This document shows positions 5,102-12,355 of a stretch of 12,384 bases of DNA, one piece after another (the stretch's first letter is position 1; each line of letters opens with the position of its first letter). The notes below the pieces were generated by a model. That model saw nothing but the letters and a program-made list of their open reading frames with translations. It did no database searches and was not told where the DNA came from. A program made the position numbers and the translations under genes. The DNA is taken from IMG/VR virus record IMGVR_UViG_2713896773_000005. One strand, written 5' to 3'. The DNA comes from a virus. Lineage: Duplodnaviria; Heunggongvirae; Uroviricota; Caudoviricetes.

Positions 5102-5430
5102 TCGCGGATACCCATCAGCTCTTTGGTGTAGGCCAGACCGATGCTGTCGAACGCGCGCGGGTAGTTCTGAAGAAGGACAATAACGTTGTCGCGGGTGAAC
5201 TCGTCAGGTAGTGCCCACCCCTCGACAATTTCCATGAGGTAGTCGGCCTGCGGCTCGATAGCAGCCTTTTTACCTTCAGCCGACTTTTGCAGCTTTTCAT
5301 CCATAGAGCGCAGCTCTTCCAGTGTCTTGTGGCGGAAGGTAAAGGTCAGCTTGCCGTCTTCAGCACCAGCGCGCGGGATGCTGGCGGTAACGGAGAAGGT
5401 CGGGTTCGGGATCAGGGAGAATTTGGTCAT
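5092..5430 (-). CDS. Tail assembly chaperone G-like, 112 aa
   Basis: ATG at 5430..5428 with SD AAGGA upstream. Small acidic protein immediately upstream of the tape measure gene, ending at the slippery site. Assigned by position and architecture, not by sequence similarity. Confidence 0.75.
   Translation of the reverse strand: MTKFSLIPNPTFSVTASIPRAGAEDGKLTFTFRHKTLEELRSMDEKLQKSAEGKKAAIEPQADYLMEIVEGWALPDEFTRDNVIVLLQNYPRAFDSIGLAYTKELMGIREKN
5095..5101 (-). other. Programmed -1 ribosomal frameshift site (slippery heptamer A AAA AAC)
   Basis: On the minus strand the G gene ends ...CGC GAA AAA AAC TAA. The heptamer A-AAA-AAC fits the X XXY YYZ pattern three codons before the G stop, and a -1 slip enters the open T frame (...K/N-L-R-Q-V-A-A-A-L-Y-T-P...). 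Confidence 0.7.
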
Positions 5431-5469: not shown

Positions 5470-6000
5470 TTAGTTAATGCCGGGCAGATACATCTGGACT
5501 TCGTCGGCGACGCGATCCCGGGCTGCATGTAATAGCTGCTTGCGACCACCAACACCCCACTTGGCCATTTGGCTGGCACACTGGCTAATTGCCTTGGTTT
5601 CAGTGTTGATGATGTGGTCGATTTTGTTCAGGCGGGACATGGCACTGATACCAAGACGCACCACTGTTCTAAATACTTCGTACACTTCAATCTCAAACTC
5701 TGGCTTTATCCAGGCGGCATAGCGGATTGCCAGAAGTTCAATGCCCCATGCACCACTTTGATCACCGCCTTTTATAACCTTAAGTGGTTGATTTTGTTCC
5801 GAAGCACTTTTTAGTGCTTTGGATTTTAGCGCTTTAACGAAGCGTTTGATCTGCGCGCTACGCAGGAAGACGCTGGGCCTTTGTGACTCAGTAGCCTCTC
5901 CGTTAGCTACCGCTGCCGCATGAAGATCGTTAAGACTGTACCGGCCTTCGTCATCAACGCGGACGGAGACCCCATTCACTGAGACGGTTGGGTGATTCAT
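5470..6000 (-). CDS. KilA-N domain-like protein (putative DNA-binding or antirepressor-like insert), 176 aa
   Basis: Translation contains ...GGDQSGAWGIELLAIRYAAWIKPEFEIEVYEVF..., which matches my recollection of the conserved KilA-N/APSES core (G-x-W ... LA ... A-W-I-x-P-E-F). ATG at 6000..5998 with an AAGG-type SD. Flanked by terminator hairpins on both sides. Confidence 0.55.
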   Translation of the reverse strand: MNHPTVSVNGVSVRVDDEGRYSLNDLHAAAVANGEATESQRPSVFLRSAQIKRFVKALKSKALKSASEQNQPLKVIKGGDQSGAWGIELLAIRYAAWIKPEFEIEVYEVFRTVVRLGISAMSRLNKIDHIINTETKAISQCASQMAKWGVGGRKQLLHAARDRVADEVQMYLPGIN

Positions 6001-9087: not shown

Positions 9088-9399
9088 TCAGGCTTCGAAA
9101 AGCTTCTGCTTTAACGCATATCCCATCAACGCCCACAACTCGCTTTCGGCGTTCTCAATAGCAATTTTCTCGCCAATTTCAGCGTTGTCGTTAGCGGAGG
9201 AAACTGAGCACGACGGATTCCCTGTTACTGCGAATCCGTTTTGAGTGGTGATGACCGCCCAGCGAAGCACCTGCCCGGTGACGGATACGTGCTTCACGAT
9301 CTCGGCATGCTTAATATTCGCCTTCAACTCGCCCAGCGTAACGCGCGGCGCGTTCAAGCCTTTGGCCTGAATTTCCTGCTCAATATCTTTATCGCTCAC
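9088..9399 (-). CDS. Gp49-like (Phage_gp49_66-type) protein of unknown function, 103 aa
   Basis: GTG start at 9399..9397 with SD GGAGG at 6-nt spacing. Translation (...NGFAVTGNPSCSVSSANDNAEIGEKIAIENAESELWALMGYAL...) resembles this widespread phage family as I recall it. Confidence 0.45.
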   Translation of the reverse strand: MSDKDIEQEIQAKGLNAPRVTLGELKANIKHAEIVKHVSVTGQVLRWAVITTQNGFAVTGNPSCSVSSANDNAEIGEKIAIENAESELWALMGYALKQKLFEA

Positions 9400-9640: not shown

Positions 9641-10780
9641 TTAACCCATGATGATGGCGGAATGACGTGGCGCCACAGCAGCCACACCCCATGCCAGGCC
9701 CACTTCATAACGCACCTGACGGTACTGGCGGTACAGCGCCACCTGGAAGGTGATGCCAGATACCGGGTCGGTCACATTCATGACGTCATCAGCAGTATCG
9801 CCACCTTCAGGCATCGCCGGGGTACGGCTGGCCAGCAGGAATGCCCCGCGGTCAAACGCCATGTTCGGTACAAATTCGCTCAACACAGTGACATCAGCCT
9901 GGTCTGCCAGATCCTGACGGAGGCCCGGCGCGCTAATAGTGATAGTGGAAGACGTAGCCGCAACGACCAGATACTGATTGTCATCACCGGCGAACTTCAC
10001 CGCAGTACCTGCAGCAATACCGCCGGTGCCAGCAGAGATAGCGATGATGATATCGCCCTCTTTCTTCGCGCCATTGACCTTATAGCCAGCAGCAGCGCTT
10101 TTCGCGGTACGCTTGATGCTGAAGGATTCGTGGAGGTTGAAGCCCATGATGCGACCGATAACACCTTCACGCAGCAGTTGGTCGGTTCCCGCTTCGTTCG
10201 CTTTGAAGAGTACAGCCTGTTTACCACGGATGGATGCCATCGCTTCGCCACCCAGCACCATACGCAAATCAGTAGTCGGCGCACCGTTATCGGTCAGGAT
10301 TTGACGCGCCAACGCAGCATCAGTCAGATCGTCTTTGATGCTGAACGGGGTATTCTTTGGCGCGCCAACAGCGCGGGAGGAGTTGAGGTACAGCGCAGCG
10401 AGATCCGCATCCACTTCGTTCGCCAGCGCACGGAAAGCCTGCTTGAACTGGTCAGCCAGGATGGTGTTGTAGGTACCAGCCGGGCCCAGAGCCAATTGCT
10501 CTTCACCATTCCATTTCACCGGGGCCATTTTGGATTTGGTGATTTTGACATCCACACCACCGATGGTCTGGTCGCCAGAATTAGGCGCTGAAGGTCCAGG
10601 GACAATATCTTCAGTGGTGGCTGCAGGTGCGACTGGCGCACGTACGGTCTGGTCTTTTGCAGCAGCATCCGCTTTCGCGTCACGCGCCACCGCAGGAATA
10701 AAACCAGTTTGCTCGCGGGACACTACGTACAGCGCGGTATAGATGGTCGGGATCAGACCAGTAAGGGTATTGCCTGCCAT
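9641..10780 (-). CDS. Major capsid protein (HK97-fold type), 379 aa
   Basis: Large ORF with SD AGGAGC upstream of ATG at 10780..10778, directly after a scaffold-like gene and before the head-tail joining genes. Composition and length are typical of siphovirus major capsid proteins. High GC (about 60%). Confidence 0.8.
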   Translation of the reverse strand: MAGNTLTGLIPTIYTALYVVSREQTGFIPAVARDAKADAAAKDQTVRAPVAPAATTEDIVPGPSAPNSGDQTIGGVDVKITKSKMAPVKWNGEEQLALGPAGTYNTILADQFKQAFRALANEVDADLAALYLNSSRAVGAPKNTPFSIKDDLTDAALARQILTDNGAPTTDLRMVLGGEAMASIRGKQAVLFKANEAGTDQLLREGVIGRIMGFNLHESFSIKRTAKSAAAGYKVNGAKKEGDIIIAISAGTGGIAAGTAVKFAGDDNQYLVVAATSSTITISAPGLRQDLADQADVTVLSEFVPNMAFDRGAFLLASRTPAMPEGGDTADDVMNVTDPVSGITFQVALYRQYRQVRYEVGLAWGVAAVAPRHSAIIMG

Positions 10781-10797: not shown

Positions 10798-11550
10798 TTA
10801 ATCGACGATGCTGACGCCGTCTTTCAGCGCTGCTTGCTTGCCAGCGTTATCCAGGGAATCAAACGCATCGCGTTTCATGGTTTTTTGCCCGGCCTGGTGC
10901 TGCGACTGGTGAGAACCGCCGCCGCTGTTACCGGACGCTTTGAGGATGTAATCTTTCTGCGGATGCGACTCGACCAGAGACTCCAGGGCCTCATCAAAGC
11001 TGGCTAACTCGCCTGGCTTGGTGCGAGAGAACACCTTGTTGCCCTGCCCGTCGTACGCCACGACTTTGCCGTCTTCGATTTTGAAGTTCTGACCGAAGTG
11101 GGAACGCACGAACTCAGCCGGGATCGCCATCTTCTCTGAAATGAATTTGGAGCCACCGAAGCGCCCGCCGATCATCTCGTCGTAGAGCTGGCTTTCGAGC
11201 TGTTTGGTCTTGCCGTTCGCTTCATCCAGCTGCTGCTGGAATACCTTGGTAATCTCAGCCTTAACCTGGTCAACAGCGCCAGCGTCGATCAGTTTTTTCT
11301 GGTCGATTTTGGTCATCATCTCCAGGGCTTCGAGCGCCTTGGTCGGATCGGTGATGCCAGAGAATTTCGCGAGACTGGCTTCCGCCGCCTCCTTCGCTTC
11401 ACGGTGAGTTTTAGCTTCACCATTCAGGGAGGTGATTTTGGTCATCGCTGCGGCTGCGTCGAACGGGATTTCTTTGCCATCATCATGGATGTACACAGGC
11501 ATACCGTTTTCAACGACCACATTTCCGTTAGCATCAAGTTTCAGTTTCAT
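10798..11550 (-). CDS. Putative capsid scaffolding protein, 250 aa
   Basis: ATG at 11550 with SD GGAG. Charged, Ala/Lys/Glu-rich, largely helical-looking protein immediately upstream of the capsid gene. Assigned by position and composition. Confidence 0.5.
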   Translation of the reverse strand: MKLKLDANGNVVVENGMPVYIHDDGKEIPFDAAAAMTKITSLNGEAKTHREAKEAAEASLAKFSGITDPTKALEALEMMTKIDQKKLIDAGAVDQVKAEITKVFQQQLDEANGKTKQLESQLYDEMIGGRFGGSKFISEKMAIPAEFVRSHFGQNFKIEDGKVVAYDGQGNKVFSRTKPGELASFDEALESLVESHPQKDYILKASGNSGGGSHQSQHQAGQKTMKRDAFDSLDNAGKQAALKDGVSIVD

Positions 11551-11631
11551 TGTTTTTGCTCCAGCCTTCCGGCCATTGGTAATAGGTCATCCGACCCGGT
11601 CACCGCGTCGCATCCGCTCAGCGGCAGGCAT

Positions 11632-11655
11632 AAAAAAGGCCACCCGAAGGCAGCC
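11632..11655 (-). terminator. Rho-independent terminator separating the two-gene accessory unit from the head genes
   Basis: Stem ggccacc (11638..11644) / ggcagcc (11649..11655), which forms 7 pairs on the minus-strand RNA including two G-U wobbles. Loop cgaa (UUCG on the RNA), followed on the minus strand by T6 (plus A6 at 11632..11637). Nearly identical in sequence to the terminator at 116..139. Confidence 0.6.
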
Positions 11656-11657
11656 TG

Positions 11658-11867
11658 TTAGATAAATTCGACGGTTATTACGCCGCGCAGTTTGCGGGTA
11701 TAGACTTCATCGCGCTTTCGCTTATGGACCCGAATGGGGTATGGGTAGAAGCATGCTATTCCTCGCTTAACATCCGCCCATACGCAGCGCTTGACCTCGT
11801 TGCCGTTAACGAACACTCGGCGCTTACCGCGGCCATCGCCCACATGGTGAAAATCGTCATCTCGCAT
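11658..11867 (-). CDS. Hypothetical small basic protein, 69 aa
   Basis: ATG at 11867..11865 preceded by a G-rich SD (GGGGGGTGG), 23 nt downstream of the DUF2829-like gene stop. Stop at 11658 abuts the terminator. The ORF-track start at 11885 is a TTG without SD, so the ATG was preferred. No family recognised. Confidence 0.5.
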   Translation of the reverse strand: MRDDDFHHVGDGRGKRRVFVNGNEVKRCVWADVKRGIACFYPYPIRVHKRKRDEVYTRKLRGVITVEFI

Positions 11868-11890
11868 AGACCACCCCCCAAGCAACTGGT

Positions 11891-12355
11891 TTAGAGAATT
11901 TGCCAGTCATCAGCCAAGACGTCGGTTTGGCTTGGTGCCCAAGGCACGCGAGCGCCATTTGGGTATGGCATAGCACCATTGCCCGGCACAGGATAAATTA
12001 AACGAATGTACGGCAGGTCCACAGATGGCGACTGCTGGACCAGCTCAAGCCACAGGCCCTTGCCGTTCCAGCCTGCGCGGGTGACACGCTTGCCTGATTT
12101 CAGGGCTTCGACAGCCAGTCCGAAGCTAAGCCCCGCCACTGGTCGGTAGGCTTTGTCGAACACATCTTTCGGACTCCAGCTCACATACCCGTTGAAGCGA
12201 TCGGTGTTTGGCTTTCCGCCATCCAGATACTCGACGAGATAACCTTCATCACTTCCGTTTTCGTCACTTGGTAACTCCCAACCACGAAAGTCGTTATATG
12301 CCAGACGGGTCATCGGGTAAGCATTGATGAGCTTCACGCCAATATGTTGAGTCAT
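11891..12355 (-). CDS. DUF2829 / Tad2-like domain protein with an N-terminal extension, 154 aa
   Basis: C-terminal half (...FGLAVEALKSGKRVTRAGWNGKGLWLEL ... ARVPWAPSQTDVLADDWQIL) carries both motifs I recall as diagnostic of DUF2829, the family that includes Thoeris anti-defence protein Tad2. The N-terminal ~77 aa is unrecognised. ATG at 12355 with a weak AAGG SD. Confidence 0.6.
   Translation of the reverse strand: MTQHIGVKLINAYPMTRLAYNDFRGWELPSDENGSDEGYLVEYLDGGKPNTDRFNGYVSWSPKDVFDKAYRPVAGLSFGLAVEALKSGKRVTRAGWNGKGLWLELVQQSPSVDLPYIRLIYPVPGNGAMPYPNGARVPWAPSQTDVLADDWQIL

Follow-up and report, generated by a model that had tools for sequence, protein, structure and literature searches.

A conserved N-terminal module joined to a Tad2-like sponge domain in the head module of a lambdoid prophage

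Introduction

Tad2 of phage SPO1 (Gp34.65; PF11195/DUF2829; 8sme/8smf/8smg), a single-domain protein of 89 amino acids (aa), holds glyco-cyclic ADP-ribose (gcADPR) through contacts at W25, N26, W73 and D79, with further ones at T78 and S76 (Yirmiya et al., bioRxiv 10.1101/2023.05.01.538930). HgmTad2 and SptTad2 (AcrIIA7-type; 8kbi, 8wjd) are of the same family and have the same gcADPR pocket, in which the mutations W21A/N22A and S90A/T92A/D93A abolish binding by HgmTad2; they also bind the cyclic dinucleotides cyclic GMP-GMP and cyclic GMP-AMP (cGG/cGAMP), using a 35-41-residue insertion between beta2 and beta5, and the gcADPR site is kept in ~99% of Tad2 proteins (PMC10680739, in which an 'EcTad2' receives a single mention in the methods, without data). 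Here we analyse a stretch of 12,384 nucleotides from a virus of the Caudoviricetes (IMG/VR virus record IMGVR_UViG_2713896773_000005), referred to throughout as the window, in which a minus-strand gene (11891..12355, stop codon included) from the list of open reading frames (ORFs) encodes a protein of 154 aa with two modules. An N-terminal module (the N-module, aa 1-73, 12137..12355, minus strand) is followed by a short linker and a Tad2-like (DUF2829) sponge domain (together aa 74-154, 11894..12136, minus strand). The protein is a member of the Tad2 sponge family, a further example of an already known type from a large family annotated as DUF2829, and the module in front is one feature that sets it apart from SPO1 Tad2.

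Sponge domains are known to occur in combination. The fusions Tad2-Acb4 (phage Pm86), Acb4-Sequestin (Ab09 gp59) and Sequestin-Tad2 are likewise modular, made of small oligomeric sponge domains and located in phage accessory regions, and it was through fusions to known sponges that Sequestin was discovered; PF21825 is this Sequestin, a sponge for 3'cADPR (a cyclic ADP-ribose), and PF13876 is Acb4, a sponge acting on the cyclic oligonucleotide-based antiphage signalling system (CBASS) (Tal et al., PMC12265669). The N-module occurs in the same combinations, although both halves of the sponge-sponge fusions are proven sponges, in contrast to the N-module. A second point of comparison is gp68, or 'RyR Tad', of Pectobacterium phage vB_PatP_CB1, described in a 2026 preprint by Fedorova et al., in which the C-terminal domain, similar to the ryanodine receptor (RyR), is a gcADPR sponge, and the N-terminal domain (gp68_N, aa 1-86) is inactive against type I Thoeris. 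In the gp68 crystal the N-domain forms a domain-swapped dimer, with beta1 completing the five-stranded sheet of the partner protomer, and to these authors, whose annotation includes Tad3 in the same loci, gp68_N is a fold of unknown function (bioRxiv 10.64898/2026.06.04.730250). Finally, Kapi1_043 of Escherichia phage vB_EcoP_Kapi1, already proposed in print to be Tad2-like (PMC12922286), is a full-length two-module homologue of the window protein at 62% identity; it differs in its length (173 aa), in the longer insertion within its Tad2 domain, in its position between lysis and terminase genes and in its high expression in lysogeny.

The Tad2 domain and its ligand pocket

The window protein shares its C-terminal domain with SPO1 Tad2 by profile, by sequence and by predicted fold. 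Pfam PF11195 ('Tad2-like') matches aa 77-154 over profile positions 2-73 of 73 with E=4.6e-20 and 72.4 bits, far above the cut-off of 25, and phmmer searches against PDB chains retrieve SPO1 Tad2 (8sme, E=5.4e-11), ModTad2 (9eib, 6.5e-10), SptTad2 (1e-9), HgmTad2/AcrIIA7 (8kbi, E=8e-8) and 9kzr (E=1e-6). The predicted structure of the domain, an N-terminal helix with an antiparallel sheet, agrees with the Tad2 fold. The initial annotation of this locus, made from the sequence without database searches, had read the C-terminal half of a 154-aa protein as DUF2829, and profile, sequence matches and model all uphold that assignment.

The core gcADPR contacts are common to the two proteins. The pocket positions of SPO1 Tad2 and HgmTad2 fall on W96, N97, W139, S142, T144 and D145 of the 154-aa protein in the phmmer alignment, and across 39 aligned homologues W96, N97, W139 and D145 are invariant, with S142 and T144 conserved in at least 90%. 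What lies between beta2 and the WxPSQTD motif is, among these homologues, hypervariable in both length and sequence. The window protein and SPO1 Tad2 both have a short beta2-beta3 insertion, of about 19 and 24 residues respectively (a hand count from the alignment), as against the 35-41 residues of HgmTad2 and SptTad2; the large cyclic-dinucleotide pocket insertion of that subclass is thus absent, a comparison of length in which the HgmTad2 dinucleotide-contact residues were not aligned one by one. Since the gcADPR contacts are kept and the long insertion is missing, we infer from the alignment that the ligand would be an ADP-ribose (ADPR)-derived signal made by a TIR (Toll/interleukin-1 receptor) domain, and dinucleotide binding of the HgmTad2 type is not expected.

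The complete protein belongs to a populous family. It matches phrog_872 over its full length (E=2e-60), a word-indexed search gave 4932 homologues, the best 120 of which are all full-length two-module proteins, and a gene of this kind is carried by 57 of 5426 complete E. coli genomes (~1%) and also by strictly lytic N4-like and G7C-like phages. The initial annotation had suggested that the fusion could be a variant sponge with altered specificity or an added function; N-domain plus Tad2 is no one-off but a large, established architecture, and the N-module recurs on many sponge families. Within this family the insertion region of the Tad2 domain (aa 101-138; alignment columns about 135-200) is hypervariable and mosaic. 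One member of the 39-homologue alignment (P0020) is identical to the window protein over the N-module and on into the first part of Tad2, and then continues into an unrelated insertion; in DNA comparison the match of 45 E. coli genomes is confined to the N-module and the first ~30 residues of the Tad2 domain. The mosaic insertion and the partial matches suggest recombinational swapping of what may be the specificity-determining part of the domain.

A widespread N-terminal module

The N-module had been described in the initial annotation as an unrecognised extra domain of ~77 aa. An extra domain is indeed present, and Pfam at E<=1 finds nothing on aa 1-76; it is, however, matched in PHROG by phrog_9467 (E=4e-15) and also by phrog_32732, and a search with aa 1-76 against 1.84 billion cluster representatives recovered 1514 at E<=1e-3, of which 849 also pass E<=1e-10. 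The module is acidic (isoelectric point, pI, 4.9) and carries the conserved motifs IGxK..A.PMtR..YN..RGW.LP..ENG.DEGYLVEY.DGG..N....GYvSWSPK.VF..AY, with near-invariant residues that are aromatic and charged: K8, R17, Y20, R24, W26, E42, Y43, Y57, W60 and Y70. Identity to it is 57-100% in the best 150 representatives, even though each stands for a separate 50%-identity cluster, and for this reason the N-module is much more strongly conserved than the sequences to which it is joined. No solved structure in our copy of the PDB resembles it. The AlphaFold2 (AF2) model reaches a block-mean predicted local distance difference test score (pLDDT) of 87-95 for aa 11-70, and the conserved IGxK segment (aa 1-9) comes out of the monomer prediction as coil with no strand (block-mean pLDDT 75), an arrangement that fits strand swapping without proving it.

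Comparison with gp68 supplies the only characterised homologue. The N-domain of gp68 aligns with the N-module by blastp at 32% identity (E=6e-6), and a hidden Markov model of the N-module family picks gp68 out of 1612 background ORFs with E=4e-6, all its other matches being N-module proteins. A bridging representative (P0159), in which a canonical N-module precedes a RyR-like C-domain, aligns end to end with gp68 at E=2e-27. On these alignments the two N-terminal domains are homologous, gp68_N being a divergent member without the GW.LP..ENG loop. RyR Tad thus resembles the 154-aa protein in having a homologous N-terminal module ahead of a gcADPR sponge domain, and differs in that its C-domain is not Tad2 but all-helical and RyR Repeat12-like (PF02026). 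Lockin was also considered as the identity of the N-module and was set aside, the two being told apart by description and by distribution: Lockin is reported to be missing from INPHARED phage genomes, whereas the N-module is common there.

The module is promiscuous in its associations. Among the best 149 representatives it stands alone in 9, at the N-terminus in 108, at the C-terminus in 14 and internally in 18. A Pfam scan of 123 of the 1514 representatives found as its fusion partner a Tad2-like domain in 46, Sequestin (PF21825) in 35 and Acb4 (PF13876) in 19, with one case each of an Acb2/Tad1 hairpin, WDGH, AP2 and HNH, and in phage inbricus the module heads a triple fusion, N-module-Acb4-Sequestin. 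The breadth of this association with sponge families is not to be found in the literature that we searched.

An accessory gene within a head module

The window is the morphogenesis module of a lambdoid, HK639-like prophage, and its genes are on the minus strand, apart from one small accessory ORF (268-498) on the plus strand. The 154-aa gene is followed on the same strand by an ATG-start gene for a basic protein of 69 aa (11658..11867), by an intrinsic terminator upstream of the scaffold gene (11627..11656; hairpin 11656-11637 plus T-run), and by the scaffold gene itself (DUF6651, 10798-11550) and the P22-type major capsid gene (9641-10780), the last two assigned by family match. The order beyond the window edge can be read in a 97%-identical E. 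coli prophage (NZ_LR536430), which runs from small and large terminase through a DUF4055 portal and a Mu-F-like minor head protein to the DUF2829 gene (in RefSeq the 154-aa homologue is labelled 'DUF2829 domain-containing protein'), the 69-aa gene, the terminator, scaffold and capsid. The initial annotation had the pair of small genes ahead of the head module; in this prophage they lie inside it, between the Mu-F minor head and scaffold genes.

Relatives of the window differ at this point. HK639 shares the scaffold gene and its upstream flank at 98% identity, and there the minor head gene is followed by the terminator, with neither the 154-aa nor the 69-aa gene; because the same head module thus exists without it, the 154-aa gene is accessory cargo. 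In E. coli ET729 and in a Salmonella contig the same head module has the 69-aa gene as immediate neighbour of the Mu-F gene, without the 154-aa gene (the Salmonella 69-aa cluster holds 107 sequences), and both genes are present in the window and in 11 complete E. coli genomes. The insertion site has, therefore, at least three states (neither gene, 69-aa only, both); the 154-aa gene entered between the Mu-F gene and a 69-aa gene that was already in place. The same variable site in HK639 (5154-5272, between gene 04 and the terminator) contains an unannotated ORF, read as ~38 aa (MPQIMVGLVSIALGLAAIVISSRSIYEMWRFMREQKNK), that looks like a small membrane peptide.

Several features of the locus had been taken together as a two-gene anti-defence cargo cassette, and these fare differently. 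Presence and absence between conserved flanks in HK639, ET729 and Salmonella bear out the cargo status, but no promoter of its own was detected for the cassette, and its terminator is not cargo. The terminator scan does place a hairpin with an 8-bp stem, a TTCG loop and a T-run directly after the 69-aa gene; the same position is annotated as a terminator in HK639 and the flank is conserved in HK639, ET729 and LR536430, so that this is a feature of the backbone. A layout with its own promoter finds no counterpart in our promoter scan, which detected a sigma-70-like site neither in the window nor in the 700 bp upstream in NZ_LR536430, where by coding-sequence coordinates the 154-aa gene begins 20 bp past the minor head gene. 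With no promoter-like site and so short a gap, the simplest explanation is that the gene is probably co-transcribed with the late head operon and its product made alongside the structural proteins.

The 69-aa protein is as basic as had been claimed (pI 10.1, 17 K+R), and RefSeq annotates the 69-aa form in the 97%-identical prophage; the mechanical ORF list gives a 75-aa, TTG-start version (11658-11885). It is predicted to be all-beta, has no Pfam match at E<=1, and its predicted structure has no fold relatives. The family is conserved as coding sequence and comprises 12 clusters, all from Enterobacteriaceae, against the 4932 homologues of the 154-aa protein, and no 69-aa neighbour was seen beside those homologues in the contexts examined (Kapi1 and Klebsiella/Raoultella prophages), where they have other neighbours. 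Since E. coli and Salmonella prophages have the 69-aa gene at this site without the 154-aa gene, it is not a partner of the latter, and the two-gene unit is not supported; we treat the 69-aa gene as a separate small gene that belongs to the lineage of the head module.

Homologues of the 154-aa gene also keep company with other anti-defence genes. In the Klebsiella/Raoultella prophages, whose head module is unrelated (head-tail connector PF12236, capsid PF19821), the homologue is placed just before the capsid gene, between it and the preceding gene (likely the scaffold), and next comes an Acb4 gene or an Acb4-Sequestin fusion gene; in the window an Acb4-family gene lies ~2.5 kb downstream. PADLOC models gave zero matches for eight proteins of the window.

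Proposed mechanism and alternative explanations

The model that we consider likely is that of a Tad2-family anti-signalling sponge, carried as cargo of a late operon, in which the N-module serves as a dimer that links protomers. By analogy with characterised Tad2 proteins, the C-domain (aa 77-154) would most likely assemble into a Tad2-type homo-oligomer, with pockets between the protomers that would sequester a TIR-made, ADPR-derived signal (3'cADPR/2'cADPR, possibly His-ADPR or N7-cADPR), and with the signal withdrawn the Thoeris effector would never be activated. By analogy with gp68, the N-module (aa 1-73) would most likely form a beta1-swapped dimer stapling the sponge protomers together, and a second ligand- or target-binding activity of the module is possible.

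Several points weigh against this model. Our reading of the literature turned up neither binding nor infection measurements on an N-module-Tad2 fusion, the window protein included. The adenine-side and water-coordinating residues of SPO1 Tad2 (I63, T65, D67 and H71), which are secondary contacts, are not conserved in the alignment with the 154-aa protein, and aa 121-140 are the least confident part of the AF2 model (block-mean pLDDT about 60); for both reasons the signals named above are candidate ligands. Family membership does not narrow the choice, given that Tad2 homologues vary widely in specificity and together inhibit CBASS, Pycsar and Thoeris I, II and IV (PMC12393519). The sole basis for the putative late-operon expression is the missing promoter-like sites. 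Furthermore, of all Kapi1 genes it is Kapi1_043 whose expression in the lysogen is highest, in every condition, and the host (MP1) has no Thoeris (PMC12922286), which a pure lytic-cycle counter-defence does not predict. Finally, the strong conservation and the stand-alone copies of the N-module are not fully explained by a mere dimerisation clamp.

This last point leads to the alternative that survives best, a possible though less probable one, in which the N-module would act against defence in its own right, as a new sponge for a small molecule or by binding a defence protein, and the fusion would neutralise two targets, as Tad2-Acb4 and Acb4-Sequestin do. The module is fused to four Pfam-defined sponge families as well as to RyR Tad, it stands alone in nine of 149 representatives, its conservation is very strong, with near-invariant residues that are aromatic and charged, and it is part of a triple fusion in phage inbricus; fusion to known sponges is, moreover, the very logic that led to Sequestin (PMC12265669). 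Set against these are its homology to gp68_N, which is inactive against type I Thoeris and in which no ligand is reported, and its acidity, whereas the pockets of known sponges are positively charged (PMC12265669). Less probable again is a role in lysogeny, in which the prophage-made protein would help the lysogen by manipulating NAD-derived metabolites or the nucleotide signalling of the host, and would not counter defence during lysis. The expression of Kapi1_043 in a host without Thoeris speaks for such a role, but that gene is located elsewhere, between lysis and terminase genes, the window gene follows the minor head gene in a late operon with no promoter-like site, and the same family is found in strictly lytic phages.

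Two further explanations are very improbable. DUF2829 proteins were first reported as inhibitors of type II CRISPR, the similarity of the window protein to 8kbi and 9kzr is to chains deposited as 'Inhibitor of Type II CRISPR-Cas system'/AcrIIA7, and a homologue in phage Louie is annotated 'anti-CRISPR protein'. We know of no type II-A CRISPR in Enterobacteriaceae hosts. The 8kbi chain is HgmTad2, which has been shown to be a gcADPR and cyclic-dinucleotide sponge (PMC10680739), and Cas9 binding was never demonstrated, according to Yirmiya et al. A structural or assembly protein of the head, with the 69-aa basic protein as co-factor, would suit a gene inside the head operon whose homologues in other prophages also adjoin scaffold and capsid genes, but HK639 and the ET729 and Salmonella prophages have the same head genes without the 154-aa gene, in Kapi1 and N4-like phages the gene is outside the structural modules, the 69-aa gene is not co-inherited with it, and the ligand pocket is that of a soluble sponge, and conserved.

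Neighbouring sponge genes and other variable sites

The head operon of the window holds a second gene of a sponge family, which encodes a 103-aa Acb4-family protein (9088-9399, minus strand; PF13876, Phage_gp49_66, E=6e-15) and is flanked by the capsid gene and the head-completion genes. A small ORF of 61-81 aa is all that HK639, ET729 and the Salmonella relative carry at this position, and on that account the Acb4-family gene also looks like inserted cargo. More generally, unrelated head modules repeatedly show clusters of sponge genes (N-module-Tad2, Acb4, Acb4-Sequestin and Sequestin-Tad2) a short way upstream of the scaffold or major capsid gene, as in two Raoultella/Klebsiella prophage loci (L010, 4001-4573, and L011, 4001-4408) and in Vibrio phage 1.205.O (L012, 2261-3252), where a Sequestin-Tad2 gene adjoins an N-module gene. 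An 'anti-signalling island' inside late operons is a possible description of such clusters.

Variation is also seen among the tail genes. A 176-aa KilA-N protein (PF04383, E=4e-15) is encoded at 5470-6000 on the minus strand between the tail tube and tail assembly chaperone genes, a position occupied in LR536430 by different genes, for a 'tail tip fiber protein' and a hypothetical protein, making this another variable cargo site. After the tape-measure gene come small accessory ORFs at 855-1376, 1432-1656 and 512-769 on the minus strand, together with the plus-strand ORF at 268-498; one of them encodes a membrane-anchored zinc-ribbon protein (PF13248, E=1e-8) and three have no family, and the cluster has no PADLOC matches. 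Outside the window, in the 97%-identical prophage (L001, 4553-5673), the IS3-family element ISSen4 is situated between the tail assembly and host-specificity genes.

Conclusions

As a Tad2 sponge the 154-aa gene is ordinary, one more prophage-borne example in Enterobacteriaceae. Few partners of phage sponge domains, on the other hand, are as conserved or as promiscuous as the N-module, which has no Pfam entry and is mentioned only in passing in a 2026 preprint. The statistics of its fusions and of its neighbourhoods point to a role in anti-signalling, and the module is therefore a concrete and cheap target for work on binding and oligomerisation. Sponge genes repeatedly adjoin scaffold and capsid genes in unrelated head modules, which may mean that they are expressed together with structural proteins, which are often the triggers of signalling defences. 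If the N-module is a new anti-defence unit, the window protein would be a dual-target inhibitor, built from a module that is attached interchangeably to Tad2, Sequestin, Acb4, Acb2/Tad1 and RyR-Tad, and the ~1500 N-module clusters would mark an undescribed anti-signalling family.

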